From: a virus
IMG/VR virus record: IMGVR_UViG_3300027969_000050
Coordinates: 32,001-96,000 of that record
Reading direction: 5' to 3' (one strand)
DNA: 64,000 bases
The notes beneath the pieces are model-generated. The model did no database searches and had not been told where the DNA came from. It was given only the letters and a program-made list of their open reading frames with translations. A program made the position numbers and the translations under genes. Positions 8,637 to 56,722 of the stretch are shown one piece after another. How positions within the stretch are numbered: the first letter of the stretch is position 1; each line of letters begins with the position of its first letter.

Positions 8637-8677
8637 GGTTATCTCTTAACGACTAGAGGCGCAAAATAAATAAGTGA

Positions 8678-9067: not shown

Positions 9068-9396
9068 ATCGAGCTTAGAACCTTGATCGTTCCAAACAGA
9101 AGGGTGTCTGTGACTCCAGCCGAGCTTGTGATTGACATCTCGTAACTAGCGCCCTTCCAAGTCAATGCGGCGGTGGTCGCTTTGGGGATCGTGAACTCAA
9201 TTAGACCAGTTGCGGTAGTGATAACGCCAGTGACCACGACGGGAGATAGGGATTTTGGCTGAATCGTAATCTTTGCCGTATAGCCGGAAAGGTCTCGATA
9301 TGACGTCCTAGAGGCGTTGGCATAAAGAGTAATTCGCTCGTAAAAAGTTGATCCCTTCCAAATAGAGAAGGAATGTTTATCTGGGATGACGGTCAC
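9064..9396 (-). CDS. putative baseplate/BppU-like adaptor protein
   Basis: IWKGSTF..DLSGYTAKITI..YEMSI..LLFGTIKV pattern; GTG start at 9396 chosen to avoid overlap with the upstream gene. Confidence 0.55.
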   Translation of the reverse strand: MTVIPDKHSFSIWKGSTFYERITLYANASRTSYRDLSGYTAKITIQPKSLSPVVVTGVITTATGLIEFTIPKATTAALTWKGASYEMSITSSAGVTDTLLFGTIKVLSSI

Positions 9397-9425
9397 AGTG
9401 ATTATGTCCTTGGTAAGGCGTACAT

Positions 9426-38259: not shown

Positions 38260-38333
38260 ATTATTTAACCCCCAGCAAGGGGACCCAACTAAGCAAAAGA
38301 CGGGACTCCTAAAGGGGACCCAAAGGGACCCGC

Positions 38334-38645
38334 TTACATCAAGCCGAGAGTACGACCCGCCGAGAGCCAACCGTGTTCGCACACGCCATCAGCTTCAACG
38401 TAACATCCTTCAGGACAATCCGTCAAGCCCATCGTGTCTTCCAACTCATGAGGAGCATATCCGTATTCAATATCTGATTGAAGTTCCGCCGCCGCATTTG
38501 GAGAAGGTTTCTCGCCTTGGCCGGTGGTGGGCTTAGAACCGGGAGGGCTAGGAATGTGATCGGGATGAACCCAACCGGGCTGCTCACCCTGTTGAGCGAT
38601 CTTCATTTCAGCCAGCATATCTTTAGATGTCGTAAGTTTCTTCAT
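38334..38645 (-). CDS. hypothetical protein with Cys/His cluster
   Basis: CPEGCYVEADGVCEHGWLS. Confidence 0.65.
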   Translation of the reverse strand: MKKLTTSKDMLAEMKIAQQGEQPGWVHPDHIPSPPGSKPTTGQGEKPSPNAAAELQSDIEYGYAPHELEDTMGLTDCPEGCYVEADGVCEHGWLSAGRTLGLM

Positions 38646-38970
38646 AAACATTACCGTGAGGAGCAACACATATATAATGGCAAACGGGTTAGCAAAATAT
38701 TCAATTTAGATCAGCGCGTTAGAGAATGGGGTATCACCGATCATACAGGGGGTACCCTAGAATCACTATCCTCGGACTTCACGGGGGGTCGCCCTATGAC
38801 AGGTTCCCTCTCTGGGGCTATTGCTGGAGACTGTGGGGGCTATGGGTGGGCGAGATAGGTGAGCATCAGGGGAGAGATAGACAGGGCGTTAGGCGCTGTT
38901 TATGGGCGTCATAGGTTTGCTTGTGCTGTTTGATACAAGCCCTCTCTCAATCATAATACGTCAGACATAG

Positions 38971-38995
38971 TTCCGTCCGATGAGTGTGATAGGGA
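38971..38995 (+). promoter_or_regulatory. TTCCGTCCGA-box element, copy 1 (degenerate -10)
   Basis: TTCCGTCCGA-N9-TAGGGA. Confidence 0.5.
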
Positions 38996-39051
38996 AATAA
39001 CCCAATGATTACGCATACTTCGCACTAGGGGAAACAGAACACTTACCTTCC

Positions 39052-39076
39052 TTCCGTCCGAACAGTTTGGTAGAGT
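39052..39076 (+). promoter_or_regulatory. TTCCGTCCGA-box promoter, copy 2
   Basis: TTCCGTCCGA-N9-TAGAGT, then AGGAG and ATG 39109. Confidence 0.8.
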
Positions 39077-39108
39077 GGTCACAGTCAATCTCAAACAGGA
39101 GAACCCCA

Positions 39109-39420
39109 ATGATGAAGATCAATCGCCGCAACGTAAGACTCGCAGACACACTCTCACCCAAGAGAGGCAAGACAGAGGACTACGATCCCCTAGTCATCAT
39201 CGAGCTATGGCGAGCAGACGGCAAGGCCAGAGTCAAAGACGCCTCCCTCGTCAGCAAAGATGAAGGCTGGGCAAAGAACCACGTCGCAGACCGAGACGGC
39301 AGCCACATCGTCACCCTAGACGAGCTTAACCGCAACTACCGGATCACCTGCGAAGCAGGACGCCCCTGCTGGATCGAATACCTCCACATCAAGTACGGCG
39401 GCACCTACTCAGAGCAGTAG
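39109..39420 (+). CDS. hypothetical early protein
   Basis: AGGAG SD, own promoter. Confidence 0.75.
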   Translation: MMKINRRNVRLADTLSPKRGKTEDYDPLVIIELWRADGKARVKDASLVSKDEGWAKNHVADRDGSHIVTLDELNRNYRITCEAGRPCWIEYLHIKYGGTYSEQ

Positions 39421-39512
39421 GGAGCCGACCAGCCCCTACACACGCGCACGAGAGAGGTTGTTTCGTTGAGGGGCAGAGGGGATTCGACCCAACAGTTATG
39501 GGGATCTGTCCC

Positions 39513-39537
39513 TTCTGTCCGACGCTGTTGCTAAGAT
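39513..39537 (+). promoter_or_regulatory. TTCCGTCCGA-box promoter, copy 3
   Basis: TTCTGTCCGA-N9-TAAGAT-GGATACATC. Confidence 0.8.
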
Positions 39538-39565
39538 GGATACATCAACCCATTAGGAGATCATT

Positions 39566-39772
39566 ATGACCATCACCAACTTCGCACTCATAGCACTCAA
39601 CGACGCAGAGATCGAGATCATTCTCGACGCTCTCGTCCCCAAGAGCGAGCAGGAGGACGTCGCGGCTGCTCAGGCCGCTGCCGATCTGCGGCTGGCTCTG
39701 TTCGTTCGTCAGCAGGATCGTCGTCGTAAGTCACGGCTGGCAGCAGAGGCAGCGCTAGAGGGGAGCCGATAA
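39566..39772 (+). CDS. hypothetical early protein
   Basis: AGGAG SD. Confidence 0.75.
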   Translation: MTITNFALIALNDAEIEIILDALVPKSEQEDVAAAQAAADLRLALFVRQQDRRRKSRLAAEAALEGSR

Positions 39773-40023
39773 TGCTCTCTCGATCAGACGCAGCGAAGCT
39801 GTCAAGCGCCCTGACCAAGGCTCACCTGTCCAAGGACTCAGATGCCTCTGACGCAATCCGTACTGCCTTCGAAGCAGGAGTGACCTCAGCTATCTTTGAG
39901 ATCTCAATGCTCGTGAACGAGTTGAGTGGCGGGCGAGTGGACGGCGTAGCCTTTCATCAGACCGCTCTGCTCACCGAGAGTCACTTCGCAGACCTCGAAG
40001 CTCAGATCATCAGGAGCCTCTAG
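39772..40023 (+). CDS. hypothetical early protein
   Basis: GGGAG SD, TAATG coupling. Confidence 0.75.
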   Translation: MLSRSDAAKLSSALTKAHLSKDSDASDAIRTAFEAGVTSAIFEISMLVNELSGGRVDGVAFHQTALLTESHFADLEAQIIRSL

Positions 40024-40136
40024 GAGAGAAGGGGAGCGACACAGCGGGCGAATGACACGGAGACCGCTGCCTGTCGCTGCCTCTCTCAGACCTAGCTCCC
40101 ATCGCAAAAAACGCGGGGCAGCGTCACCGTGACCGG

Positions 40137-40161
40137 CTCCGTCCGACGGGTTTGATAGAAT
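40137..40161 (+). promoter_or_regulatory. TTCCGTCCGA-box promoter, copy 4
   Basis: CTCCGTCCGA-N9-TAGAAT-GGATACAT. Confidence 0.85.
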
Positions 40162-40192
40162 GGATACATTCCACCACTCAGGGAGACACCGA

Positions 40193-40456
40193 ATGACCAT
40201 CATCGAGACCCAGACAGACCACACTTGGAAGCAGACCAAAGAGGGCTACGGCATACGCCACACTCTCGTCGGCACCTCGTACTCAATCCTTGCCAGCGGC
40301 GAGGTGATCGTTGATAGTTACGGCGCTCACGGACGGGCGCGGCTTAGTGGCAAGAGGTCATACACAATCTACGACGGGGAGCGCAGTTTCCGCTACTGCG
40401 ACCTGCTCAAAGACGCCAAGCAGGTCTGCGAACGTCGCTCAGAAGGGAGCCGATAA
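40193..40456 (+). CDS. hypothetical early protein
   Basis: GGGAG SD before ATG 40193. Confidence 0.75.
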   Translation: MTIIETQTDHTWKQTKEGYGIRHTLVGTSYSILASGEVIVDSYGAHGRARLSGKRSYTIYDGERSFRYCDLLKDAKQVCERRSEGSR

Positions 40457-41232
40457 TGACCATCACTCTCGCCGTACAGACCGACACCGCACTCGCAGCC
40501 CTCTGGACTCAGATCTACGCTCTGCGGGGCGAGGTCGCTCAGGCCGTAGCATCGCTTGGCGATCAGACCAAGACCGAGGGCGACTACCTCTACAAGCGCG
40601 GCTACAAAGTCTTTCAGGGCGACGCTCGTGGCTGGACTCAGATCTTGACTCACGCGGCATCGCTGGCCTACTGCCCTGTCGGCGCAACCAACGTCTTTCG
40701 CACCGGCGCTGAGAGTCGAGACAAGTACGGTAAGATGGGCGAGGGCGAGAAGGATCGTCTGCTGAACACTCTCTCCAAGTACGAGACCCTTCGGGACAAG
40801 ATGGCCGAGATCGAAGTCGAGACCGACCCGCTCCAAGCAATCTACGAGCAGCATCGCTGGAGCCGGTTCTTTCTCGTGACAAGTTCTCAGGGTCACGTTC
40901 ACTCGTCAATGAGTTGCTCGACCTGCTTCCCTACGACTGAGTACGGCTGGCTCCCGAACCTCTCAGGACTGACCGAGGCCGACGCTGTGGCGCAAGAGGG
41001 TTCGATCCTCTGCTCCGTCTGCTTCCCTTCCGCTCCGACCGAGTGGACGACGGGGATCTCCAAGGCTCAGGCCGAGAAGGAAGCGGCGAAGTGTTCCGGC
41101 TCCGGCAGCCGAGTGGACGCCAGCGGCGAGTCGCTCAACCCCTACCGCAATAACTATGGCTCCTGCCCTGACTGTAAGGCGCAGCCCGCCATCACCAGCA
41201 CCGGCAAACTCCGCGCTCACAAGCCCGCCTGA
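40456..41232 (+). CDS. Cys/His-rich (Zn-binding) phage protein
   Basis: GHVHSSMSCSTC..LCSVCFPSAP..CSGSG..CPDC..LRAH. Confidence 0.8.
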   Translation: MTITLAVQTDTALAALWTQIYALRGEVAQAVASLGDQTKTEGDYLYKRGYKVFQGDARGWTQILTHAASLAYCPVGATNVFRTGAESRDKYGKMGEGEKDRLLNTLSKYETLRDKMAEIEVETDPLQAIYEQHRWSRFFLVTSSQGHVHSSMSCSTCFPTTEYGWLPNLSGLTEADAVAQEGSILCSVCFPSAPTEWTTGISKAQAEKEAAKCSGSGSRVDASGESLNPYRNNYGSCPDCKAQPAITSTGKLRAHKPA

Positions 41233-41236
41233 GCGG

Positions 41237-41261
41237 TTCCGTCCGACGACTTTGGTAGAAT
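41237..41261 (+). promoter_or_regulatory. TTCCGTCCGA-box promoter, copy 5
   Basis: TTCCGTCCGA-N9-TAGAAT-AGATACATC. Confidence 0.85.
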
Positions 41262-41301
41262 AGATACATCAACCAACCACACCACAGGAGATACGATCAT
41301 T

Positions 41302-42426
41302 ATGGCTTCATCACCGATTCCCAAGGCAGACCAATGGCTCGATCAGAGCATCAAGAACCACGCCGCAGGTAAGCGTGGGATCAACGCTCTGCTCGTCGGC
41401 CTACACGGCACCGGCAAGACGACGTATGTAATGGAGAGGGCAGCAGCCAAGGGTCTGAAAGTCGCCCTGTTCACCTGCTCGATCCTCGACCCGTACACCG
41501 ACTTCGTTGGCGTCCCGTTCCAAGTGATTACCAACGAGGGAACGCCGAGCGAATCGCGCTACCTAGAGAAGGTGCGCCCCAAGGCAGTGGACGAGTGCGA
41601 TCTCATATTCTTCGACGAGATCAACCGCGCCGCTCCGGTCGTCCTGAACGCAATGCTGGAGATCATTCAGTTCGGCACGATCAACGGCGAGAAGCTCCCG
41701 AAGCTGATCGGCTGCTGGGCAGCGATGAACCCGCCTGACGCGGGCTACGACGTGAACCCTCTCGACCCTGCTCTCGTGGATCGCTTCGACACTTTCTACG
41801 AGGTCAAGGCCAAGCCGTCCGTGAAGTTTATGAGCGCGTCAATGCGCCCAGAGATCGCTAAGGCTCTCGTCAAGTGGTGGGAGGGTATGGATCGCTCCAA
41901 GCGAGACAACACCGACTACATCAGCCCTCGCCGTCTGGAAAAGATCGGCATCTACTACGACACCTTCGGCACGTTTGAGGAAGCCCTACCGGCCTCTATG
42001 ACGGTCGAGCGGTCGAAGCTGGCTGACCTGCTCCGTGACGCTGAGAACCAAGGCAAGGGCGTCGCCGCAGCAGCCTCGCAAGGCGGCATCGGTGGGGCGG
42101 CCAACGCCACCCTGACCTACAACCGCGATTGGATCCGCGAGTACCCGTCGGCCACTGTTGCCGTCCTCTCGTCGGCACCGGACGATCTGACCACTCACAA
42201 CGCGGTCGTGGCTTGCTTCGACAAGACCAGCGGGGCGAACCTCGTCAAGGACGACGGCGAGGTACTCAACGCCATCAAGCCGTCGGTGCTGGAGGCCTTC
42301 GTCGCCGGACTGACGCCAGCCAAGGCCAAGACTCTGGCCGAGAACGTCGCTGTGCTGCCGCAGGCAGACCGTGACCGGCTCGCCAGCCTCGTCTCTGTGG
42401 TGGAGGCAGATGCCCAGAAGCGCTAG
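41302..42426 (+). CDS. MoxR-like AAA+ ATPase
   Basis: GLHGTGKT Walker A, IFFDEINRA Walker B, AAMNP, LDPALVDRF, ISPRRLE. Confidence 0.92.
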   Translation: MASSPIPKADQWLDQSIKNHAAGKRGINALLVGLHGTGKTTYVMERAAAKGLKVALFTCSILDPYTDFVGVPFQVITNEGTPSESRYLEKVRPKAVDECDLIFFDEINRAAPVVLNAMLEIIQFGTINGEKLPKLIGCWAAMNPPDAGYDVNPLDPALVDRFDTFYEVKAKPSVKFMSASMRPEIAKALVKWWEGMDRSKRDNTDYISPRRLEKIGIYYDTFGTFEEALPASMTVERSKLADLLRDAENQGKGVAAAASQGGIGGAANATLTYNRDWIREYPSATVAVLSSAPDDLTTHNAVVACFDKTSGANLVKDDGEVLNAIKPSVLEAFVAGLTPAKAKTLAENVAVLPQADRDRLASLVSVVEADAQKR

Positions 42427-42437
42427 GGCAGCGGACA

Positions 42438-42462
42438 GGGCGGGGGGCTTCGGCTCCCCGTC
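42438..42462 (+). terminator. GC stem with UUCG loop
   Basis: GCGGGGGGC-TTCG-GCTCCCCGT after the ATPase stop; no clear U tract. Confidence 0.55.
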
Positions 42463-42467
42463 CGGCG

Positions 42468-42492
42468 TTCCGTCCGACACCTCTGGTAGAAT
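42468..42492 (+). promoter_or_regulatory. TTCCGTCCGA-box promoter, copy 6
   Basis: TTCCGTCCGA-N9-TAGAAT-GGATACATC. Confidence 0.85.
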
Positions 42493-42525
42493 GGATACAT
42501 CAACCGCAAGACTTTGGAGATTCTT

Positions 42526-43872
42526 ATGACCACCACCATCACACCTGACCAGCACTACCGCGAAGCGATCAAGTGGATTGACACCGAGGCCTACGCCTAC
42601 TTCGTCACTTCGATCCTGAACCTTGGCAAGCCCAACTGGAACAGCGCGATCCCCACAGCCTGCGTAGGCGTCCCTCAGGACGGCCAGCAGGGTCACGGCA
42701 GCACCAGCGGCTTTGAGTACCACTTTAACCCTCAGTTCGCTCTCAAGCTCCCAGCGTCCCAGCTTGCCTTCGTCGCAGCCCACGAGACGCTCCACATCGT
42801 CCTGAACCACCTCGCCCTGTCGGACAAGTACCCCGACCACTCGCTCTTTAACATCGCCGCCGACTGTGTTATCAACGACTACCTCGCCCAGCAGGGCTTC
42901 GACGTGCCTGAGTGGGTTATGACCGGCGAGAAGCAGGTCGGTTGGAACGCAGCGGATAGCACCGTCAGCGCCGTGTACGCGGCTCTCCAGCACCGTGAGC
43001 GCACCGAAGGCGGCTCTCCAGAAGCGGGAGAGGCCGGAGACACCTCAGGCGGCAGCGCAGGAGACGGCAGCCTCGTGGACACCCACGAGTGGATCCACGA
43101 CGCTACGGCGGAGCAGAAGGCCGCCGCCGAGAAGGCGTCCGGCGATCAGAAGGACGCTGGCAACCTGCCGCAGGAGGTCGAGGATCAGAAGGGCGACGCT
43201 CAAACCGGCAACGGTCACGGCATCAGCGGAGGGGGCGAGGGGCGCGAGTTCTTTAAGGACGGCTCCGTGACGCTCCGCTGGGAGGCTCTGATCCGCCGCA
43301 TCAACCCAGACGCCTACAAGCGTCACGCTCCGGCTCCAAGTTGGCTGCGCCAGCCGCCACGCCTGATCGGGAGCAACTGCCGCCTGCCTGAGTACCCAGA
43401 CGTGAACCGAGACCAGTCCGGCTTCGCAGAGCAGCCCGCTCTCGTCCTCGCTCTGGACACCAGCGGCTCGATCCAAGACGAGGACGCCCGCCGCTTTATC
43501 AACCTCGCTCGCTCGATCCCCCAGAGCAAGGTCAAGCTGTTCCCCATCACGTTCACAACCAAGACGATGGATCTCGATCTCGACAACCCGTACTACGAGG
43601 GAGGCGGCACCGACTTCGGTTGTATCGAGGCCTACATTCAGGCCAGCGTCGTGAGCCAGCTAGGCCACTACCCCAAGGCCGTCGTCGTCATTACAGACGG
43701 GCAGGCTGGCTGGCATCGTGGCCAGCACGTCGAGCCGTCAAACCGCAAGTCGTGGACGTGGCTCTGGACTCACAAGGGTACCTTTAACCGCTACGCCCAC
43801 AACTCCGGCTACGCCGAGGGCGAGACCTGTAACTTCGGAACCGCTGAGGCTCTCAGCGACTACACCAACTAG
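42526..43872 (+). CDS. HExxH metallopeptidase-like + VWA domain protein (DUF2201-type MoxR partner)
   Basis: AHETLHIVLNH, NIAADCVIN, LALDTSGS (MIDAS), GGGTDF, VVITDG. Confidence 0.9.
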   Translation: MTTTITPDQHYREAIKWIDTEAYAYFVTSILNLGKPNWNSAIPTACVGVPQDGQQGHGSTSGFEYHFNPQFALKLPASQLAFVAAHETLHIVLNHLALSDKYPDHSLFNIAADCVINDYLAQQGFDVPEWVMTGEKQVGWNAADSTVSAVYAALQHRERTEGGSPEAGEAGDTSGGSAGDGSLVDTHEWIHDATAEQKAAAEKASGDQKDAGNLPQEVEDQKGDAQTGNGHGISGGGEGREFFKDGSVTLRWEALIRRINPDAYKRHAPAPSWLRQPPRLIGSNCRLPEYPDVNRDQSGFAEQPALVLALDTSGSIQDEDARRFINLARSIPQSKVKLFPITFTTKTMDLDLDNPYYEGGGTDFGCIEAYIQASVVSQLGHYPKAVVVITDGQAGWHRGQHVEPSNRKSWTWLWTHKGTFNRYAHNSGYAEGETCNFGTAEALSDYTN

Positions 43873-43884
43873 GAGGGCTGGACA

Positions 43885-44715
43885 ATGGCTAACGAGATCT
43901 GGACAGACGTATCAGCAGTACCTACGAGCAGTGGCAACATCGTGACCGGAGGCAGCTACCACAACGCCGAGTGGCACCTAGAGGGAACGGATCTGAATCT
44001 GATCCAAGAGTCACCTCACCCTCAGACGGGAGAGGCTAGGGGCTTTACCCTCAGCACGATGGGCTGCTACCGCTCGTCAAAGCTGGAGGCCACCAGCGTC
44101 TCCGATGCGATGCTGGAGGTCGAAGCGATCTGCCAAACCGGCTGGCTTCGCCCTAGCCACCTTCACAGCCTGACGAGCCTCCGAGGCTGGGACAAGGAAG
44201 CTAACCAGTGGATCGAAGTTGAGGACGCGATGCTTCCAGTCAAGATCGGCAAGAAATGGCACTTTGTTATCTCGTCGGACGAGATCGGAGTGGGCGTCGG
44301 TCGGCCTGAGGTCGTGAACGTCTCGCAAGTTGTTCTGGGACGCCAGCGAGAAAAAAATTATTCTGGCTGCGGTCGCCACTGCGAGGACAGGCTGACTGAC
44401 CTAAAGCGGATCACGGACGCGCTGCCTGATTACAGCTACGAGGACAGGATTGGCGAAATGGTGGCAGCCGTCCAAACCGGAGGCTCAAAGACCACGCGCC
44501 ATCGCAACCACCCCGCCGCTGTCTGCTCAGTCTGCGCCGACGCTGCTGGCCTGCTGGCGCTGAGGAAGGCCTGCGAGTGTGACGATCACAAGTGGCAGGA
44601 CAAGTACGGCTACCCCAACAACGTCTGCGAGTCCTGCGACGGCCTGACGCCTTGGAGGGCATACACCGAAGCCAGCCCGCACCATCAGCCAAGGCCAGAG
44701 CGCGTCAAGGTCTGA
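43885..44715 (+). CDS. Zn-binding hypothetical protein (PVK..KWH family, copy 1)
   Basis: AGGAGG SD; LPVKIGKKWHFV..CGRHC..CSVC. Confidence 0.75.
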   Translation: MANEIWTDVSAVPTSSGNIVTGGSYHNAEWHLEGTDLNLIQESPHPQTGEARGFTLSTMGCYRSSKLEATSVSDAMLEVEAICQTGWLRPSHLHSLTSLRGWDKEANQWIEVEDAMLPVKIGKKWHFVISSDEIGVGVGRPEVVNVSQVVLGRQREKNYSGCGRHCEDRLTDLKRITDALPDYSYEDRIGEMVAAVQTGGSKTTRHRNHPAAVCSVCADAAGLLALRKACECDDHKWQDKYGYPNNVCESCDGLTPWRAYTEASPHHQPRPERVKV

Positions 44716-44740
44716 GTCCGTCCGACAGTGTTGCTATAAT
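44716..44740 (+). promoter_or_regulatory. TTCCGTCCGA-box promoter, copy 7
   Basis: GTCCGTCCGA-N9-TATAAT. Confidence 0.85.
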
Positions 44741-44774
44741 ACCCATTACAACCCAACCACAGGAGTCAATCATT

Positions 44775-45563
44775 ATGGCCGTCAAGACCACCAACATCAT
44801 TCTCGCAGGAACCACCGTTATCCCCGTGAAGCTGGACAAGGCTACGGAGAGCGGAACCGACGTCAAGCTCAACCGCTGCTCGCCAGAAGGCAACGCGGTC
44901 AAGCAGACCTACCGCGATGAAGTCACAGGGCAGGTCTATGAGACCTCTGAGCTTCCCAAGGATCGTCTGTACGACGGCCACCTGATCGGCGGCGATGATC
45001 TCGCTGAGATTGACGCCGAGTGTAAGATCGAGGATCTGGAGGCGTCCATCGTCCCGATTAGCTCGATCCCTTGGCACTACGCCAAAGGCACCTACTACAT
45101 CTACCCTGATCCAAAGGCCAGCGCCGCCGTCAAAGGCATCTTTCACGCCTTTATGGAGGCAGCCCAGAAGGAAAAGCGGGCGCTGCTCTGTAAGTGGACT
45201 CCCCGCAGCCGTCAGTCGGCTCTGGCGATCACCTTTGACGGCGAGAAGGCCGTAGCGGTCGAGATCGCTTTCGCCGGTGACGTTCGCAAGCCGAGCGACA
45301 ACGCTGTGGAGTTCGCAGCCGAGAAGCCAGTCAAGGCCGTCGTGGACAAGGTGCGCGAAGTGCTAGTCGCCCTGACCGACGAGAACGCCTACGACGGTCT
45401 CAAAGACGAGGCCGTAGAGAAGCGTCGCTCGCTCGTGGAGAAGGTCGCCAGCGGCGAGAAGGTCGTCAGCACCAAGCCAGCCCGCAAGGCGGCAGACACG
45501 GCGACAGCGGTGGACTCCGTGATCGCAGATCTCGACGCGGCTCTGGCAGCCAAGGTGAAGTAG
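44775..45563 (+). CDS. ku: Ku-like DNA end-binding protein
   Basis: IPVKLDKATE..VKQTYRDEVTGQVYETSEL..YYIYP..LVEKVASG..VIADLDAALA follows the prokaryotic Ku pattern; AGGAG SD before ATG 44775. Confidence 0.8.
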   Translation: MAVKTTNIILAGTTVIPVKLDKATESGTDVKLNRCSPEGNAVKQTYRDEVTGQVYETSELPKDRLYDGHLIGGDDLAEIDAECKIEDLEASIVPISSIPWHYAKGTYYIYPDPKASAAVKGIFHAFMEAAQKEKRALLCKWTPRSRQSALAITFDGEKAVAVEIAFAGDVRKPSDNAVEFAAEKPVKAVVDKVREVLVALTDENAYDGLKDEAVEKRRSLVEKVASGEKVVSTKPARKAADTATAVDSVIADLDAALAAKVK

Positions 45564-45598
45564 CGCAGCGCCTGATCCCTCAGACCGAGCAGCAAACC

Positions 45599-45622
45599 AG
45601 CGCCCCCGAAAGGGGGCGTTTG
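45599..45622 (+). terminator. intrinsic terminator
   Basis: AGCGCCCCC-GAAA-GGGGGCGTT-T. Confidence 0.8.
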
Positions 45623-46097
45623 TCGTTGTGCGACGATCCGCAAGTCGCCTAGCCAGAAGATCTGACTGCGCCGTTAGGACGAATAAAAAATAATTCTCGA
45701 GCCTTGCCAAACCGCTCTGGCCCGAAAACTCAGCAAAGGCGGGCTTAAAAATTAGCCGGTCTTCTTCAGCGGCAGGAAAAAATAATTTCCAACCTGACGG
45801 ATTCGCAACTTTGCGTTAGGGGTCAGTCGTTGTCCCTGAGCCAAGGGAAGTCGAAGCGGTCGTGGAGCATCAAACCGAGACCGACGACAGTGAGACCGAC
45901 GCCAACCAAGCCGTGATGAACCCTCGCGCCGAGAACCCAAACCCGCTGGGCTTGCCGATCCCAGACAATCACTGCGACCTCTTGCGTCTAGCCCACAAGA
46001 AATAAAAATAATTTGTGTGCCGGTTCCCAGTTGTCCCAGTCGTCCCTGTCGTGCCGGTCACTCCAGTTGTTCCCGTCCCAGTCATCGAAATAAAAAA

Positions 46098-46331
46098 TTA
46101 CGCTGCTATCGGCGCCGGACGAGGAGGAACATCAACCGAGAAACCTTTGTCTAGTTCCAACTGACGGATCCCACGCCTGTCAGCTTCCCCTACAAAGGCC
46201 GTCCAAGCCGCTTTACGAGCGCCAATCGTGAACAAGATGACAGTCCAGCCGTCCTCTTGGCTGATCCTGTGTATCTGAGTGTGTCGGTACCCACAACTAG
46301 CGAGAAAGTCTGCGGCGTCGAAGTCGGTCAT
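46098..46331 (-). CDS. hypothetical protein
   Basis: 77-aa ORF preceded by the GTAA-N8-ATG motif. Confidence 0.5.
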   Translation of the reverse strand: MTDFDAADFLASCGYRHTQIHRISQEDGWTVILFTIGARKAAWTAFVGEADRRGIRQLELDKGFSVDVPPRPAPIAA

Positions 46332-46444
46332 CGTACTGCTTACGGGTAAGAAAAAATAAATAAGAGAGTCCCACCCTTGACATCGACCTCCAAACCGCGC
46401 ATAATAATCGAGGCTATCCTGCCCGCCACATTAGGAGATCAGTA

Positions 46445-46597
46445 ATGAACCTCGTAGATAGTGTTCACGGTCGAGTGGATCCCTGCCGACTACCTGAGCT
46501 AGATGCTGCCGCTGCTAAGGAAGGGCGGCCAACCACACCGATCTATCAGGCGATGCTTCGCTGGAAAGAACAGCAGCAAGCCGCTAAGAAAAAATAA
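46445..46597 (+). CDS. hypothetical protein (50 aa, below cutoff)
   Basis: TTGACA-N17-CATAAT promoter (46377-46405) and AGGAG SD. Confidence 0.6.
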   Translation: MNLVDSVHGRVDPCRLPELDAAAAKEGRPTTPIYQAMLRWKEQQQAAKKK

Positions 46598-46651
46598 TAA
46601 TCATACACTCATCGTCATCCCGACCTGAGTGGGAAATAACTTTGCCCGTCG

Positions 46652-46676
46652 TTCCGTCCGACCTCTTTGCTATACT
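46652..46676 (+). promoter_or_regulatory. TTCCGTCCGA-box promoter, copy 8
   Basis: TTCCGTCCGA-N9-TATACT, then AGGAGG and ATG 46708. Confidence 0.85.
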
Positions 46677-46707
46677 GTGACTCACAGCAACTATCAGGAG
46701 GATTACG

Positions 46708-46941
46708 ATGTACCTAGTGACGATGAAGGACGGAAGCACAGAGCAGATCAAGTTCTTTGACGGCGGCGGCTGCTTCATTGGCGGCGGCGGCTACAACGTT
46801 GCCTGCTACGACGAGCAGGGCAACTTCTGTGAGATTCCACAGGCCGAGATCCTTTCGGTCGTGGACGAGAGCGGCGAGGTCTATACCGACTTCGGCAACA
46901 ACCTCTTTGACGGACACCCTTACCCAAAGGCGGTGGCGTAA
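46708..46941 (+). CDS. hypothetical early protein
   Basis: AGGAGG SD. Confidence 0.75.
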   Translation: MYLVTMKDGSTEQIKFFDGGGCFIGGGGYNVACYDEQGNFCEIPQAEILSVVDESGEVYTDFGNNLFDGHPYPKAVA

Positions 46942-47558
46942 TGAGCCATCTATGGAGCAAGGTCGAGATCGACAACGAACACGAGCAGAATTATTACAAA
47001 AACCGGTGGAAGTTGGAAGGCAGCCCTTTCACGATTGACCAGCGAAAGGACGTTGGTACTTGGCGGGCTGTTGCCGGTTCGCGCTCACAGCTTTACGGCA
47101 GTAGCGCCCGTTACTTTGGCGTCGCGTCGCTTGACAGCACGACACTCAAAGCCGCTCAAAAAGAGGTCGAGATCGTAGTTGAGCAGAGCTTCTTTCGCGC
47201 TCACAGCGGTCTCTGGAACCGAGGCCTTCTGACGACGGCTCAGTGGGATCCAGCGGCGCAGGAATACAGCGAGATCGAAAACTTCTTGCGGCCTGTTAAG
47301 GTCGGTCGCGGAAGCAAGAAATGGCATCTAGTGGCACGAGACGGCTACGAGGACGACAGCGGCTTTCAGCGCTTCACTCTCTGCGGCTACGAGTGCGAGA
47401 GCGAAGTCAAGCAGCAGGACGAGCTTGCGGCTGCCCTAAAGGACACTGGATACAGCCTCGATCAAGACCTAGCCCGACACGAGCTAGGAAACATCTGCTC
47501 TAAGTGCGCCGACGCCAATGGGCTTATCGTTATCAAGCAAGAGGAAGTGGTCGTATGA
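46941..47558 (+). CDS. Zn-binding hypothetical protein (PVK..KWH family, copy 2)
   Basis: LRPVKVGRGSKKWHLV..CGYEC..CSKC. Confidence 0.75.
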   Translation: MSHLWSKVEIDNEHEQNYYKNRWKLEGSPFTIDQRKDVGTWRAVAGSRSQLYGSSARYFGVASLDSTTLKAAQKEVEIVVEQSFFRAHSGLWNRGLLTTAQWDPAAQEYSEIENFLRPVKVGRGSKKWHLVARDGYEDDSGFQRFTLCGYECESEVKQQDELAAALKDTGYSLDQDLARHELGNICSKCADANGLIVIKQEEVVV

Positions 47559-47719
47559 CCTGTCCAGAGTGCGAACACGACGAAGTAATCGAGAGCGAGG
47601 TCGAGAGCGACCTGTGCGAGTGCCTGATCTGTGGCCTTGAGTTCGCCCTCAAACCGGCGTCGCCGGACAATGACAACGGCTGGGTAACGGCTGCCCCTAC
47701 TGTCTGGGTAGGCTCGTAA
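47555..47719 (+). CDS. small Zn-ribbon protein
   Basis: MTCPEC..CLICG; ATGA overlap. Confidence 0.65.
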   Translation: MTCPECEHDEVIESEVESDLCECLICGLEFALKPASPDNDNGWVTAAPTVWVGS

Positions 47720-48039
47720 TGACCTTCATCTTTGGAAAGTCAGAGCGTGGCTTTGGATGCGACACTCCGGTTAGGCTGAGGCCTGTCAAACCGGACGGCA
47801 GCCGGAAGTGGCATCTAGTTGTGGAGGACGAGGACGGCACAGCGGCCAGCGGCGCGGCCAGACGATCCATCTGCGGCGTGAATTGTAACCAAAACGGGGA
47901 GATCCAACGTCAGGAGGAATTGGCCGATTCGCTTAGGCACACCGGCTACCTGCTCAGCGAGGATCTCAGCAGGATCCCGCCAAAACAGATCTGTGCGAGT
48001 TGTGTTGGCAGAGAAGGCGTAAAAGTGGAGGCCGAATGA
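47719..48039 (+). CDS. Zn-binding hypothetical protein (PVK..KWH family, copy 3)
   Basis: LRPVKPDGSRKWHLV..CGVNC..CASC. Confidence 0.75.
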   Translation: MTFIFGKSERGFGCDTPVRLRPVKPDGSRKWHLVVEDEDGTAASGAARRSICGVNCNQNGEIQRQEELADSLRHTGYLLSEDLSRIPPKQICASCVGREGVKVEAE

Positions 48040-48242
48040 CCAAGCGAAAACTACGAGCCGAAAACCGACGCTACAGAGACGCCCTAGAGGGCATACAGAC
48101 GATTGCCGACCTTGCCCTTCACGGAGACGAGGACGGCGGTCAGACGCTCTCTATTGACCTCACAGAGGGTATGGAGGGCATCGAAGCAATCAGCGACCAC
48201 GCCTTACGCGGCGACAACCCAAGAGAGAAAGCAGACCAATGA
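48036..48242 (+). CDS. hypothetical protein
   Basis: GGAGG SD, ATGA overlap. Confidence 0.65.
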   Translation: MTKRKLRAENRRYRDALEGIQTIADLALHGDEDGGQTLSIDLTEGMEGIEAISDHALRGDNPREKADQ

Positions 48243-48592
48243 TCTACCGAACAAGGCGATCAGCCTTTATGGTGCCAACCCTTCTGAGGCTTGCTCAGGA
48301 GTACGACAAGCAAGACTGTAAGCTGGTAGGGCGCAACCCTGACCCGCTGGAGCCTCAGTACCTAATCGAGTTTGCCGACGGCCATCAAGGCGCGGCTCAC
48401 GAATTGGAGTTGTTCACAGACATTAACGATGTCGGATACTCCGAGTTTGATTACCTGTCCTCGCTCGCGCCTTCTGAGGCAAAAGAGACGACGGGCAAAA
48501 AGATCAAGACAACCAAAACAAAGGTCAAAGCCATCAAACCGACCAAAGAAAAAACTGTGGCCGAGACACTGACGGAAAGGACAGCACGATGA
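48239..48592 (+). CDS. hypothetical protein
   Basis: ATGA overlap; YLIEFADG..AHELEL. Confidence 0.65.
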   Translation: MIYRTRRSAFMVPTLLRLAQEYDKQDCKLVGRNPDPLEPQYLIEFADGHQGAAHELELFTDINDVGYSEFDYLSSLAPSEAKETTGKKIKTTKTKVKAIKPTKEKTVAETLTERTAR

Positions 48593-48849
48593 TTGACGGA
48601 GCTTACGCAATGGGAAGGCGTCACGCTTTAGAGCGCGGGCCAAAAACGCAGGCAGGCATTGAGTCAATCCAAGGACTCAACGAGATCGAATACCTCGACT
48701 ACCTTCGGGGAGTCAAGTCTGGCCTCAACGAGATCGTTAGCAACGCCGCCGGAATCGGTGAGCAAAAAATAATTGCTACCAAGATCCACGACCTCCCTTA
48801 CCCAAACGAGATCATTCATACCGAGTTCATAGGTGAGGACAATGATTAA
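48589..48849 (+). CDS. hypothetical protein
   Basis: AAGGA SD, ATGA overlap. Confidence 0.65.
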   Translation: MIDGAYAMGRRHALERGPKTQAGIESIQGLNEIEYLDYLRGVKSGLNEIVSNAAGIGEQKIIATKIHDLPYPNEIIHTEFIGEDND

Positions 48850-49312
48850 GACAGGCGTCGTCCACGAAGGTCTAGAGATCTACCTGTCCAACCACGCCAA
48901 CGAGAGAGTCGTGGAGCGCGTCTATGGCGGCACCACCCGCAATGTGATCGCGCTGACCTGCGCCTTGATCGAAGGCTCAACCATCAGCGTCGCCCAGCCG
49001 GACTTTCTCGACTCAGAGAGTCACAGCAGAGACGGCACCCCAAGCTGTTGGCTAGTTCACGACAAGGCTGGAGTTCAGTTTGCGATGCCCCTTCACTATT
49101 TGGAGGTGAGAGGGAGGCAGTCGTTATGCGCCACAACCTGTCTCATTCCGTCCTACAAATCACGCAGACCTAAGGAAGCCAAGGCAAGCAAAAAGACAAA
49201 GCTGCGAAAGCACAAGATCGGTGGGCGTGGCAATGCCCCGATTTCATCACCAAACCGCATAGCCGGACGTAGCGCCGCAGCAAAGACGACGATAACGTGG
49301 CGGCAAGACTAG
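48842..49312 (+). CDS. hypothetical protein (HAxER motif, basic tail)
   Basis: IYLSNHANERVVER; GAGG SD. Confidence 0.65.
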   Translation: MIKTGVVHEGLEIYLSNHANERVVERVYGGTTRNVIALTCALIEGSTISVAQPDFLDSESHSRDGTPSCWLVHDKAGVQFAMPLHYLEVRGRQSLCATTCLIPSYKSRRPKEAKASKKTKLRKHKIGGRGNAPISSPNRIAGRSAAAKTTITWRQD

Positions 49313-49381
49313 CTGAGAGGCCGTTAGGGACGTTCTAAGCGCCTCTCAGGAGGTACAAACGGACAAGGAAGGTGGGAAGGT

Positions 49382-49618
49382 ATGACCTATGAGGAAAGAG
49401 ACACGTCGGTACGGATTGTTACCGAGACCGGCGCATCTTGGGAGGATGTGCCATCGGTTGAAACGTTGGCTAGGCTAATCGTTCTCGCCACTTATGCGAA
49501 ACCAGATCAAGGGGTTTGGAGGGCGATTGACCTATGGGATTTGTCGCGGCGAGTTGCGGCGCTACTACCTGACGCTGACGTTACGGCGGCTGTGGCTTTA
49601 GCAAAGATAGAATGGTAA
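49382..49618 (+). CDS. hypothetical protein
   Basis: 78-aa ORF with purine-rich leader. Confidence 0.55.
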   Translation: MTYEERDTSVRIVTETGASWEDVPSVETLARLIVLATYAKPDQGVWRAIDLWDLSRRVAALLPDADVTAAVALAKIEW

Positions 49619-49630
49619 GTTAAGTCCCAC

Positions 49631-49673
49631 AAACGGAAGGCTAAACCGACCGCTCAGGCGGTCGTTTCCGTTT
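49631..49673. terminator. probable bidirectional terminator between convergent blocks
   Basis: AAACGGAA..CGACCGC-TCAG-GCGGTCG-TTTCCGTTT nested inverted repeat. Confidence 0.65.
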
Positions 49674-49774
49674 GTCTCTCCAAACCGCGATTTCATCACG
49701 CACCAAACCGCGAACAAAGAGCGCTGGAAGCAACGCCCAGAAAACGATCTCCGTTATCTCGTGGCCGCGAAACT

Positions 49775-51235
49775 TCACAAACCGCTTTCTTTCCAGTCGA
49801 ACACGCCTGACGTTCTTCCCAAAGCCAAATTGAGAAGTTTGTCTCGTTCGTTGATCGAAGGATCGCCAATCACCTGACCCATAAGGCTCTCAAGAATTTG
49901 TCCGATCTCTGGGCCTCGAGGAACGCCAGCCTCAATTAAATCTTGGCCGTTGATTGCCAACTGAGAAAGATCAGTCGGCTGCTGCTGCTGGCGCACTTGA
50001 TCCACAAGGCCGCGCTGAACCTCGTACTCGTTGTCATCAAACGCATCTTGCCCTTCGCCCTTCGCCGCTTGATCAGCCCAGCGCAGGTTCAGCAGATCAT
50101 CTGCGTGCGGCTCGACCCGATTTAAAAATTTTCTTGCGCCCTTCTCCGAGTCAAACGGGGCAAACATATGGTGCTTTACGAGGTCCGAAACCCGATCAGT
50201 CCTGTCCTTCGGGTACCTCAAACGGGTCATTGCGTCCCTAGTCATTTCCTCACCGACGAGTTCGTGTTGCTGACCTATTGTGCTTCCGTCAGGCAGGCGC
50301 TTCTGGTAGTAATGGTTTGTTCCTCGCTCTGGATTCACCCAAGCGGATGCGGGCTTGCCAATATCGTGGAGCAAACCGGCCAAACGGGCATCTGGGTCAT
50401 CAGTTTTCTGACTGATTCGGTCAAGCACGTCAAGCATATGCTCGCCAAGTTCTAAAGCGTGGTGCGGATTGTTCTGGTCGTAGCCGAACGTTGCATCGAC
50501 CTCAGGCAAAATATATTTAAGTACGCCGCTGTCGTGGGCCAAACGGATGGCGCCGACTGGGTCGTCCGAAGAAAAAATTTTATCCAGCTCTGCTTGCACT
50601 CTTTCGGCTGGGAGATGTTGGAGGCTTGCTGCCGCCTCAGCCATTTGGGCAATCGTTCCCTCGTCAGGGTGAAGGCCATGCCGACCCTTAGCCACAAGCG
50701 CCCTAGCAACCCTGAGCGGATCCTCGCTTAGCGACTGGTCGTGGATTGTTCTTAGTCGCCCACCTGCGATGTCCTCAGCGCCATTGTGCGGATCAATAAG
50801 TTCGCCCGTTCCTAGATTGACGGCCATCGCATTCGCTGTGAAGTCACGCCTCAAAAGATCTTCTTCAGGCGAAAGGGTGTGGTCGGCATCAACAGAAAAA
50901 TCCGTGTGCTTGTCGCCAGTTGACTGTTCGTGGCGAGGCAGCGCGATCTCGACCTCCTCACCGCCCTGCTTGTAACGAAAGACGCCAAAATCTTTTCCTG
51001 TGTAATCAATGTCTCCACCCAGTGGAGCTAAAACCGAATCAATATTTTCTTTTGGAATACCAGAGACCATGAGGTCAATGTCCTTCGGGGTCTTGCCCAT
51101 GATCGTGTCCCGGACCGCGCCTCCAACTGCGTAAACCTGCCCACCAGCAGCCATAAGCGCTTCAACAACGGGCTGAATAACAGGATTGCTTGCGACAATT
51201 TGCCTTACCGACTGTCCCACATTGTCCTCAGCGGC
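49775..51235 (-). other. cca: class II tRNA nucleotidyltransferase (CCA-adding / polyA polymerase family) + HD domain, within the large ORF
   Basis: YAVGGAVRD, KDIDL, EDLLRRDFTANAMA, EDPLRVAR, ERVQAELDK, QNNPHH..HM, LLHDIGK, LAINGQDLI..GPEIGQIL. Confidence 0.92.
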
Positions 51236-54200
51236 TCCGAAGTGAAACTCGTCTCCGCCCTGACCTCGCGCCCTTCCACGGAGGCCTCCGCCCGGTTGTA
51301 GGTCCGGCTGACCCAAGGCGCGATTGATCATTTCCACCTGATCGGGGGTTGGGTTTCCATAAAAACTGATCTTCTGATCCTCTCTTGGCGGACCCGAGGC
51401 GTGACTATTCGGGGGCCAAGTTACTCGACCACTGAGAAAGGTTCCTTCCTGAAGGGCTTTCATCCAGAAAGTGATTGCGCTGGCGCCATCCCCATTCAAA
51501 AATTTATTTCTGAATTCGGAATCCTGCGAGAGCATCTCGTAGTGATAGCCACCGGGCGGTCCAAAATAAACGGCGTTGTCCTCCGGGAGATAGAACCAAG
51601 GGGCGTCTAGTTCAGGACTCTTGTGAACTTCGTTGGGCTGGAACTTGATGTAAACGACTTTTGGAGGATTCAGTTCGTCAAATGCCCCGAAACGAAAATC
51701 TTCTTCTTGCTCATCCAGAACCTCATCCGCAGGAAAAATATTTCTTAGGGCGTCGTTGACTCCCGGAGCCGGTTCCGTCAGACCTTGATTGTCGGAGTTT
51801 GGAAACGAATCTTCCCAACTAAAATTACCTGAATTTTGCCAATACTCGCCTCTGCAAGGATCGCCCGCCGCAATCAAATTTTCTCCAACGTTCTCAGAGA
51901 GTCCCATAGGACGACCCACCCTTGGAATATCAAACTCGTTTATAAGGTCCTCGTGATACTGACCGCGAAGGCCAACGTAAAGCGCATTGGCGGAAGGCCA
52001 ATAGATAAACGGAATTCGGTTTTCGTGGTAGTCCATTCCTTTCCTATTGTGTTCTTCATTCTGAGATATGAAAACCGTGACGCCTTGCCTAGTTCTATAG
52101 GTGCCAGCGGCTCCGAAACGGAAGCCCTCATCTTCTTGAGCCGGATCAGAAAAAATATTTATTAGCGCGTCGTTGAGTCCTGCTTCTGGTTCGGTGCCTT
52201 CATCGTTGAACCACTGAAGGGAGTCGTAGCTTGGTGGAATAAAACTTCCGTCACCCGGAACGCGGCGCCAATACTCGCCGTGTGTGTCAGGCCCAAAACC
52301 GCCGCGTAAATCGAAATCGGCTTCCGTCCAAGCCCCCCGAATGTCGAATTCTTCTACAAGGTCGTCGTGATACTGGCCAAAGACGCCAACATAGAGCGCG
52401 TTATTGACAGGGCAATAAATAAATGGCGCCCTGTCCTTGTTGAAAACCCTATGTTCATCTGGATCTTGTGATATCAAAACATCGGTGCCAAACTCAGTGG
52501 CCGCCCCGAAATGAAAGTCTTCAGGGCTTTCGCTTTGCCTCAAATCATCTAGATCAGCAAGCGGATAGTCGGGCAAACCAAGCGCTTCGCAGATGGCTGG
52601 AGCCAATGCCGCCGCCTCTGGGTTATTGGGATCAACAAAGTCGGGCATCAGGCGGTCAAACCTCGTCCAAAAAGAAAATCTTGGCGCGTCCTCGAGTCCG
52701 GCCTCCCTAAGAGCTTTTTCAATGATCACATGATGGATGTCGGGAACCGAGCCAATCCAAATTTGTCCCTGCTCAGGCAAAACAATTAGGGAGTAGCCTC
52801 CAAGCTCATCTCCTTCCCTAGGAATAATTATTCCTTTGTTCGCACGGCCCGTGCCGACAACTCGACCATCATCATCAAGCCAAACGGGAGTTAATTCTGT
52901 CGAGGATCCAAAGTGGAATTCTGAGGCTCCTCCGCCAACAAGGCCATTCAAAGCAGTAATCATTTCCGCTTGGACGCTTTCGGGGACTCGGCTGCCATAA
53001 AACACCAAGTCATTTGGCGGCGAGAACCTTCCAAAGAAATCATAAGACCCGTACTGATTGACGACGCCTCTAGGAAGCTTATTTGTCATTTCGTTATGAA
53101 AGCCGTCTTCCCTTCCAATAGCAATGCTCCATCCATCGTGCCGCGTCGCGTCAGGGTTCATCTCGAGATAGCGCCGTTCTTCTTCGGCTGGGACGCCGAA
53201 CCGCTCTTCGATGTTTATGTCTAGGGTTCCTTCGTCCCAAGCAACAACAGGGTAAAGCTTGTCCATACCTGCACTCGGATAAGGGGTACTCTCCAAATAT
53301 TCTCCGTGGCTTGGATAATCGGGATCCGCCTTGGCGCCCCTGAGGTCAAGCAGCTCGACATGGCTTAAGATGGCTCGAGATTTTTTCTTTGCGCCCTCAT
53401 CATCTCCTTGGCCTTCTTCGCTAAGATTTTTTAATTCTGAGATGTCGGTTGGCTCTTCAGGAATGATCATTGGTCCGCCCATTGATTTGGGGCAAGGACC
53501 GGGCTTGTGATTGAAGCCGCATTCCTCACAGGCACCAAATTTTAAATCCTCTTCGTCAAGCTCAACACGCACTTGTTCGCTCTTACGACGGAACTTATCA
53601 AGCACCTTTTGGATGCGCGAAGTTGACTTTTTTCCTCCAGAGAGAAAATCGGAGTTCCGGATACCACTTTCATTTTCATTTTCGAACGAATTCACCCAGT
53701 TTCTAAGGATATTTGCGAAGATCGGGGCGTCAAGTTCATCATCTTTGGCAAATGCGTTTGCCTGACTATCGGCAGGTTGGGCAGGTTGCGTATCAGAGAA
53801 GGAAAAGTCAGGATCCCCAAGGAAATGATCAACAATTCCCTCGCCTCCTTGCGGATCAAACGCCTCCCAGCCTGTTCCAAAGGGCTTGTTGTCTGCTCCG
53901 AACTTAAAATCTTCTTGCTCCCACTGCTGGCTAATGTCAAGATTGTCGATAAAGGCCTTGATATTAGAGGGGATCGGCTGTTCATCATAAGGCGGGCGCA
54001 TCCAATCAACCGGACCAAATTGACTTTTCCTTCCTTCCCACGCAGCTCCGTCGATTGCGCCCAAAGTCAAATGCGAGTCCCAAGTGGTTCCAACTTGAAC
54101 CGTGTTGCTTTTTGGCCAATAAATAATCGGACAGTCGCCTCGAGGATCGGGCGCACCGCCGCCGGTTGATTCAAAGACGACCTTTGGCTCCTCTGAAGCG

Positions 54201-56248: not shown

Positions 56249-56291
56249 ATCAATTAAGGCTGCGCTTTAGGCTAAAACCAACCAACTTGGG

Positions 56292-56444
56292 TTAATCAGC
56301 CTCGACCCATTCCTGTTCAGATAGCTTCACAAACAGGTAATCAGCACCATCTGAGGTCTCTACTTCAAACGGCGCGTAGCGAGCATCGCACTCGCAAACT
56401 AAGACAACTGTGTTACCGGACTCTCCAGCAATGTATATCTCCAT
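56292..56444 (-). CDS. hypothetical protein (50 aa, below cutoff)
   Basis: MEIYIAGESGNTVVLVCEC.. fills the gap after 56457..56708. Confidence 0.45.
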   Translation of the reverse strand: MEIYIAGESGNTVVLVCECDARYAPFEVETSDGADYLFVKLSEQEWVEAD

Positions 56445-56456
56445 TTACGGAAGATA

Positions 56457-56708
56457 TCAGGGCAAAAGAGCGCTGTCAATACCGTGAGTCGAAAAGTCTG
56501 TATCAACGTATCCACGAGCGCGGGCTTCTGTGACGGCAAGAAACTCTTCGTACACAGCGTCTCCAGTGTGATTGAACATCGCTCGGTCGTAAGCGTCGCC
56601 CTTGCTCTGGAACTCACGAATGACCTGTAGCAACTTGATGTTGCCCATTGCTTTGTAGTTGCGTGGCCTTTTGCTTAGGTATGTCATAATAGACATATTA
56701 TAGCACAA
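56457..56708 (-). CDS. hypothetical protein (true start probably ATG 56687)
   Basis: TGCTATAAT at 56697-56705 lies inside the tracked 5' end. Confidence 0.55.
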   Translation of the reverse strand: MCYNMSIMTYLSKRPRNYKAMGNIKLLQVIREFQSKGDAYDRAMFNHTGDAVYEEFLAVTEARARGYVDTDFSTHGIDSALLP

Positions 56709-56722
56709 ACAAAAGTTGGATA

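Follow-up and report, generated by a model that had tools for sequence, protein, structure and literature searches.

The window analysed here, 64,000 nt corresponding to bases 32001–96000 of the 140,266-bp IMG/VR virus record IMGVR_UViG_3300027969_000050, contains a block of ~11 kb (38.64–49.8 kb of the window, or 70.6–81.8 kb of the genome) of plus-strand, early-type genes that is nearly free of the words CATG, TGCA, GGNCC, CCSGG, GAAGA, GGATG, GTYRAC and CYCGRG, and which we refer to as the island (38640–49800; coordinates are those of the window unless stated otherwise). The source contig encodes a tailed phage, with genes for a portal, large terminase, family-B-like DNA polymerase, tail fibre and baseplate, and its two ends (1–132 and 140135–140266) overlap by ~130 bp followed by an apparent sequencing-adapter remnant, giving a closed circular assembly; the record itself is labelled ‘linear, 87% complete’. 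The best portal match was to mycobacteriophage cluster C (41% identity) and the best terminase matches were to Rhodococcus phage E3 and cluster C (34–35% identity), all of them distant, and these closest characterised relatives are actinobacterial myophages, which the phage resembles in its structural genes rather than Demerecviridae. No near-identical phage was present in the phage collection searched.

The island comprises ~20 plus-strand open reading frames (ORFs), mostly small orphans. Four of these at its upstream end (39109–39420, 39566–39772, 39772–40023 and 40193–40456), none with a Pfam or PHROG match, are followed by a 258-amino-acid (aa) PHROG 2433 protein (40456–41232), a family without an assigned function that is widespread in actinophages, a MoxR-like AAA+ ATPase (Pfam AAA_5; 41302–42426) and a DUF2201_N putative metallopeptidase domain protein (42526–43872) of the VWA type that is the usual partner of MoxR ATPases, the nearest phage relatives of which are in N4-like phages of Proteobacteria. 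Further downstream lie a 276-aa orphan (43885–44715) and a divergent homologue of the bacterial-type DNA-end-binding protein Ku (44775–45563; Pfam Ku, E = 1.6e-14), which matched TIGR02772 over its full length (E = 1e-19) yet fell under the curated cut-off and had no match among PDB sequences. An ATP-dependent DNA ligase is encoded outside the island, at 19.3–20.2 kb of the genome (19358–19900), and Ku and this ligase make up the two parts of a minimal end-joining system. The distal portion of the island (46445–49618) holds eleven small orphan ORFs, several of them acidic (pI 4.1–4.9) and again without a Pfam or PHROG match, ten of which lie at 46445–46597, 46708–46941, 46941–47558, 47555–47719, 47719–48039, 48036–48242, 48239–48592, 48589–48849, 48833–49312 and 49382–49618. 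Pfam, PHROGs, NCBIfam and ESM Atlas gave nothing usable on the function of the island orphans, and neither an integrase, a transposase nor flanking direct repeats were found for the island.

All ten predicted promoters of the island, eight of a private ‘box’ class and two sigma-70-like, are on the plus strand. To the left, on the minus strand and at normal site density, lie a 653-aa multi-helix-turn-helix protein and a small leftward ORF with its ATG at 38647 (36421–38647), and between this divergent gene start and the first promoter a 280-bp non-coding stretch with many G runs can be read from the sequence (38648–38929); Rfam gave no match in the island, this stretch included. A sigma-70-like promoter (TTGATA-16 nt-CATAAT, 10/12; 38930–38957) marks the upstream end of the island. 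Box promoters combine a TCCGTCCGA box with 9 nt (including TG) and TAnAAT, frequently followed by a leader, GATACATCAACC. They occur at 38970–38992 (with the box TTCCGTCCGA), 39051–39089, 39512–39550 (one box mismatch), 40136–40174 (extended −10, TGnTAnAAT), 41236–41274 and 42467–42505 (both combining an extended −10 with the conserved leader), 44715–44753 (5′ of the Ku gene) and 46651–46689. Just past Ku, a GC hairpin (GCGCCCCC-GAAA-GGGGGCG) with a T-rich tail (45600–45627), recognised by eye and not flagged by a consensus scan, is a likely terminator of a first sub-block, and beyond an ORF-poor spacer (45628–46376) a second sigma-70-like promoter (TTGACA-17 nt-CATAAT, 11/12; 46377–46405) opens a second sub-block that is closed by an intrinsic-terminator-like hairpin (49647–49664), so that this promoter and the two hairpins divide the island in two. 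Convergent with it is a terminator-like hairpin (49719–49738, minus strand) of a 2157-aa ORF (49775–56248, minus strand) that forms the right flank, in which restriction-type words resume at 49814; the next 35 kb beyond the island is on the opposite strand. The last ~450 residues of this polyprotein gene product constitute a complete CCA-adding enzyme, with domains for a PolyA_pol head, RNA binding, HD and tRNA_NucTran2_2, and its first ~1700 residues are without a family match.

Several repeated words accompany this layout. Exactly between the two convergent terminators, two copies of CCAAACCGCG, 23 bp apart, flank GATTTCATCAC (49680–49712, noted on reading the sequence), and a GATTTCATCAC-CCAAACCGC(G) unit recurs at 49241–49259; the repeat is a candidate protein-binding site, which might serve as a terminus, an injection stop or an origin. 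A run of five or six A residues followed by TAAT or TAAA occurs in six plus-strand copies between 45685 and 48764, all in the island, where A/T runs are otherwise few; four of the six are in the spacer (45.63–46.38 kb) and a fifth follows closely at 46589, with only four elsewhere, all on the minus strand. Between 43201 and 50372, all 15 copies of CAAACCG (extended, YCAAACCGS) are on the plus strand, compared with 11 copies on each strand of the other 128 kb; they span several reading frames as well as non-coding DNA and are densest at the distal edge of the island. Chi-like, binding-site and RNA-signal roles are all conceivable for this word, and its candidacy as a strong Chi-like signal was weakened by a codon-aware null, which puts the excess at a moderate level (12 observed, 5.4 expected), and by a strand bias that largely tracks A-over-T composition.

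The depletion of words in this block is real and stronger than first described. The original prediction had described a segment of about 12 kb without CATG or TGCA that matched the early-gene block, and the CATG-free gap indeed measures 12,230 bp (38447 to 50677) and the TGCA-free gap 12,237 bp (38255 to 50492); TTCAA and TTGAA, also said to be missing, have gaps of 12,461 and 10,980 bp. For each of these four words this is by far the longest gap in the 140,266-bp genome, and outside the gaps they occur at 1.3–2.5 per kb, in keeping with the claim that they are common elsewhere. Co-located gaps that had not been listed were found for GGWCC (11,856 bp) and CCCGG/CCGGG (~13 kb). We compared the observed counts with a null in which synonymous codons were shuffled among the island's own genes, so that neither the encoded proteins nor the codon usage of the island changed. 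CATG (0 observed, 21.5 expected, lowest shuffle 14), TGCA (0, 21.3 and 12), GGWCC (0, 24.4 and 13), GGNCC (2, 43.7 and 27) and CCNGG (2, 40.2 and 26) all lay far below every shuffle, CCSGG was absent or nearly so, and GAAGA (7 observed, 24.3 expected, both strands), GGATG (4 and 20.8, both strands), GTYRAC (0 and 8.6) and CYCGRG (1 and 12.8) were similarly scarce, so that observed/expected (O/E) counting, proposed as a check of the prediction, gives a density of CATG and TGCA that is not normal. For TTCAA/TTGAA the long gaps stand, whilst the shuffles lend the depletion weak support (4 observed, 9.9 expected). When the ten words purged only in the island were pooled, they occurred once per 56 bp outside it and 11 times between 38639 and 49444, where ~190 were expected, and the six longest gaps of the genome in this pooled set lie adjacent to one another in the island, with the next longest elsewhere being 663 bp.

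No other region of the genome resembles the island, the ligase operon and the rest being at normal site density, and, as had been proposed, the depletion is confined to one contiguous early-type block. Its refined edges, ~38.64 kb on the left and ~49.8 kb on the right, fall near the divergent gene start (38647) and the terminator (49647–49664); on the right the CATG and TGCA gaps overshoot the edge by 0.7–0.9 kb, which fits chance extension. Five of the 11 residual pooled sites, the single CYCGRG of the island and one of the two GGNCC among them, are clustered in a 110-bp patch of the spacer just past the Ku terminator (45656–45763), which either was inserted recently or is a place where sites are tolerated. 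The asymmetric words GAAGA, GGATG, GGACC and CCCGG are depleted in both orientations, and selection therefore targets duplex DNA and not mRNA, which rules out RNA-level selection. A compositional artefact is ruled out by the synonymous shuffles, and an assembly chimera by the genome-wide avoidances that the island shares with the rest of the genome and by the recurrence of the pattern in a relative (see below).

The avoidance shows in codon choice, as originally claimed. None of the 26 codons preceding ATG in the island ends in C, against 44% of all codons; where the next codon starts with A, Cys is encoded by TGT in 7/7 cases (elsewhere by TGC in 40/50), and Phe before AA is TTT in 4/4. The words removed are palindromic or strand-symmetric, they are depleted beyond what codon and amino-acid constraints predict, and the depletion is achieved through synonymous choice: selection has removed the recognition words of numerous Type II enzymes via synonymous codons on both strands. 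The guanine-plus-cytosine content (GC) of the island is 0.55–0.63, compared with 0.50 elsewhere, and at third codon positions (GC3) it is 0.71 compared with 0.50. The genome carries three tRNAs (Lys-UUU, Leu-UAA and Asn-GUU; genome 114449–115470, minus strand), and codons read by them are commoner outside the island than inside. Since, in addition, low-GC actinophages infecting hosts of ~62% GC are on record (PMC13313380), we infer that the island consists of host-adapted genes translated before the phage tRNAs become available. Island proteins (39109–49618) contain 0.88% methionine and 1.94% cysteine, compared with 1.94% and 0.86%, respectively, elsewhere.

Applying the same shuffle to the other 128 kb of the genome revealed two tiers of avoidance. 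A first set of words is purged genome-wide, with CCWGG (0 observed, 259 expected), GDGCHC (0 and 186), GTCGAC, GCCGGC, CAGCTG, CCGCGG and CTGCAG all at zero and CGGCCG and CGATCG at one each, and inside the island ~76 sites of this tier were expected and none was seen. The second tier, the 4–5-bp words plus the degenerate 6-bp GTYRAC and CYCGRG, is purged in the island only, with an O/E outside of 0.64–1.46 and about 300–500 copies of each word retained in the rest of the genome. Avoidance thus extends to the whole genome for rare 6-mers and CCWGG, and frequent 4–5-mers are removed in the island only. GATC is over-represented relative to synonymous shuffles, both in the rest of the genome (O/E 1.21, z +6.2) and in the island (38648–49700; 104–106 observed, 67–68 expected, z +7), whereas in five relatives tested its O/E was 0.92–1.04. 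The island evolved in place, all of the genome-wide avoidances and the phage's own GATC excess being present there.

Portal-based searches yielded ten further contigs (G001–G010). Four of these (G001, G002, G003 and G005; GC 0.57–0.70) show genome-wide avoidance only, or none, with no regional island, and no regional island was found in the fragments G006–G010. The remaining contig, G004, is an 81.6-kb fragment (GC 0.48, portal 56% identical) and the only other low-GC relative large enough to judge. It contains a GC-rich 16-kb island at 41.9–57.9 kb (41919–57946) in which AATT is absent, compared with 34 from a Markov expectation and 102 from the outside density, and TTAA occurs three times compared with 18 expected; AGCT and CCWGG are additionally avoided throughout G004. 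The G004 island has ~17 co-oriented TTGACA-type promoters on the minus strand, in which a conserved AAACACAATC word and TTGACA are followed by a spacer with TC(C/T)GACCCGAAAGGTAG and then TAGTCT. A resemblance between the TCCGTCCGA box and the G004 promoter spacer TCCGACCCGA was set aside as a possible coincidence, only two exact copies occurring in G004. The two islands share a single gene, that of the PHROG 2433 protein, and the G004 island holds genes, including a helicase, whose orthologues in the phage studied here are located elsewhere than in its island. What defines an island is therefore a region or temporal class and not a fixed gene set. We infer that the missing words, which differ between the two phages, follow their hosts. 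The island ATPase was absent from the IMG/VR relatives, scans with the promoter signature gave no hit among metagenome contigs and, among viral contigs, three single hits attributable to chance, and protein scans with the shared island gene and with the G004 helicase recovered nothing new.

Why should only one region have been purged? Any cleavage-based explanation requires that the rest of the genome be out of reach whilst the island is exposed, and the regional character of the depletion may be explained most economically by DNA that is exposed before protection is expressed, because of the precedents of T5 first-step transfer and the T7-like leading region. Probably, if by no means certainly, the early block has to withstand the host's Type II restriction without help, the simplest reason being that it enters the cell first. 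A plus-strand block that begins at a promoter, ends at a terminator and consists of two sub-blocks, with ~20 genes including the MoxR ATPase, its VWA-type partner and Ku, would be transcribed and translated whilst host restriction is still active; its products would then protect the rest of the genome with its hundreds of copies of each word, and staged entry, island first, as in T5 first-step transfer or a T7-like leading region, would let that remainder escape in the meantime. That a lineage of actinophage-like myoviruses, the known relatives of which use headful packaging, has evolved to expose only one 11–16-kb early block to restriction is a more doubtful proposition, and exposure could be limited to one block either by staged delivery or by a novel, sub-genomic protection of the remaining 90%.

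A number of observations weigh against exposure of an early, first-entering block. The closest characterised relatives, at the portal and terminase identities given above, are circularly permuted, both mycobacteriophage cluster C (PMC4472892) and the Rhodococcus myophage Finch (PMC13313380), and headful phages do not have a fixed segment that enters first (PMC12455610). A regional island is missing from the four higher-GC relatives, and the island of G004, whilst broadly alike in location, with the tail and head blocks on either side, is inverted. None of the island proteins matched a known anti-restriction family. The box promoters are without a −35 element and may need an activator, so that expression as ‘immediate’ early genes is presumed only. 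The residual sites in the patch at 45656–45763 are a further difficulty, and complete later protection would make the genome-wide avoidance of 6-mers needless. The interpretation offered with the original prediction stands in part: the depletion is real, is brought about by codon choice and acts on duplex DNA, and set against a fixed first-entering end are the permuted relatives, the inverted G004 island and the lack of a match, among the island proteins scanned against Pfam, PHROGs and NCBIfam, to the T5 A1/A2 transfer-protein family, remote homologues of which could escape such scans.

The same evidence bears on the version of this idea in which the island would be a T5-type long terminal repeat, present at both ends of the virion DNA, collapsed in the circular assembly and equivalent to first-step-transfer DNA. 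Eleven kilobases with many small early genes under strong promoters resemble the 10,219-bp T5 repeat and the 12.4-kb terminal region of SPO1 (PMC6873191), the contig closes on itself as a collapsed repeat would, and the CCAAACCGCG repeat sits exactly at the distal edge, the position of the repeat-rich injection-stop region in T5; a circular assembly is, however, equally expected from a permuted genome, and no A1/A2 family match was found. The permuted state of the related myophages and the inversion of the island in G004 count against a fixed first-entering end, and on balance we regard a terminal repeat as unlikely. Alternatively, all of the DNA might enter at once, with Ku, the ATP-dependent ligase and unknown inhibitors protecting or rejoining cut ends, so that only cuts in the island would invariably be lethal. 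Such a scheme is compatible with permuted relatives, would make use of the Ku gene in the island and the ligase gene at 19.3–20.2 kb of the genome, would account for the coincidence of the depletion with a transcription block, and has a parallel in the ligation proposed to contribute to T5 restriction resistance (PMC8594841). With 300–380 sites per 4-mer, however, cleavage would produce many pieces with no ordered rejoining, exonucleases could reach the island from any nearby cut, and the ligase operon is itself at normal site density, which leaves cut-and-repair quite unlikely.

Acquisition of the island from a foreign donor, such as a small phage able to avoid 4-mers genome-wide, with the composition and avoidance of the donor retained, would fit its raised GC (0.55–0.63 against 0.50), distinct codon usage and promoter class, the lack of its genes in closer relatives and the affinity of the VWA-partner gene to N4-like phages of Proteobacteria. 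We consider this origin very improbable because the island has all of the genome-wide avoidances, with none of ~76 expected sites present, as well as the GATC excess peculiar to this phage, and because the G004 island avoids other words and holds core orthologues, the helicase amongst them, that lie outside the island here; moreover, no integrase or flanking repeats were found, and zero counts in five word classes require ongoing selection. It had also been suggested that the words are chemically modified outside the island, which would have to stay unmodified; access for host RNA polymerase could be one reason. The DNA of Finch, a phage with a preQ0 pathway, is modified and resistant to MseI (PMC13313380), and GATC is over-represented genome-wide in the present phage; yet no N6/N4, C5 or D12-class methyltransferase, TGT/DpdA or thymidylate-synthase-like hydroxymethylase was detected in the 140-kb genome, the genome-wide purge of a dozen 6-mers suggests DNA that can be cleaved, and no mechanism is known that exempts a single 11-kb region. 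With no enzyme found among the families searched, this suggestion fared poorly and is just as improbable.

Early exposure of the island, the reading that we favour, can be set beside the systems in which such exposure has been described. In T5, bases 1–10219 are annotated as entering first, with a repeat-rich injection-stop region, and introducing a site for EcoRI into its first-transfer DNA renders the phage sensitive (PMC12455610). Like the island, T5 first-step-transfer DNA consists of ~10–11 kb of small early genes with strong promoters, lacks sites that are present elsewhere, and is thought to encode products that protect the rest of the genome, unidentified DNA-protection functions having been proposed for the early-injected region (PMC8594841). 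Under the same statistics the T5 repeat nevertheless shows a far weaker effect, with EcoRI (0 vs 3), HindIII (0 vs 6) and PstI (0 vs 4) missing relative to the next 40 kb, CCWGG low, no 4-mer purged and no GC shift. The island also differs in having no homology to A1, A2 or dmp, and its phage in a structural gene complement that is actinobacterial-myophage-like as opposed to that of Demerecviridae.

In the T7-like murciaviruses, it is only within the first-injected region, a variable part of the genome with anti-defence genes, that restriction motifs have an effect (PMC12455610). The likeness lies in a sub-genomic restriction effect and in co-oriented early promoters, but in the murciaviruses a single Type I motif is involved and the phage is a 40-kb podovirus with all genes in the same direction, whereas at least eight Type II-like words are purged here, in a 140-kb genome whose downstream genes converge on the island, and no Ocr or SAM-hydrolase (S-adenosylmethionine hydrolase) homologue was found among the island proteins in Pfam or PHROGs. 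A further parallel is the large myovirus SPO1, which replaces T with hydroxymethyl-U. Its host-takeover module is a terminal region of 12.4 kb (PMC6873191) with ~24–26 small, highly expressed early genes in several strong-promoter operons, and the island similarly has ~20 ORFs, ten promoters and GGAG-type ribosome-binding sites; the two differ in that they have no sequence homology, and region-limited site avoidance is not mentioned for SPO1 in PMC6873191. Genome-wide avoidance of restriction sites in phages (Rusinov et al., 2018, as cited in PMC8594841) likewise selects out palindromic Type II words, and the CCWGG, GDGCHC, GTCGAC and GCCGGC tier is a standard example of it. What sets the present genome apart is the second tier, which is regional and comprises 4–5-bp words that would be costly to purge across 140 kb.

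The principle of region-limited avoidance is itself known; what is new is the lineage, the completeness of the 4–5-bp purge and the two-tier structure that recurs with other words in a relative. To our knowledge, experimental proof of region-limited restriction avoidance exists for T5-like and T7-like phages only, and the same logic would here operate, in a more extreme form, in an unrelated, uncultured 140-kb phage and, with other words, in its distant relative. This cautions that restriction sensitivity can be mispredicted by genome-wide site counts. If exposure is indeed limited to such an early block, the words missing from the island would be a direct read-out of the active Type II enzymes of the host, with at least eight specificities in this case, and novel anti-restriction functions of broad effect would be concentrated among its orphan genes. 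Word statistics could then be used to find, in uncultured phages, the early or first-entering DNA that is vulnerable, to list the restriction specificities that such phages meet, and to flag blocks of orphan genes that are likely to neutralise restriction broadly.

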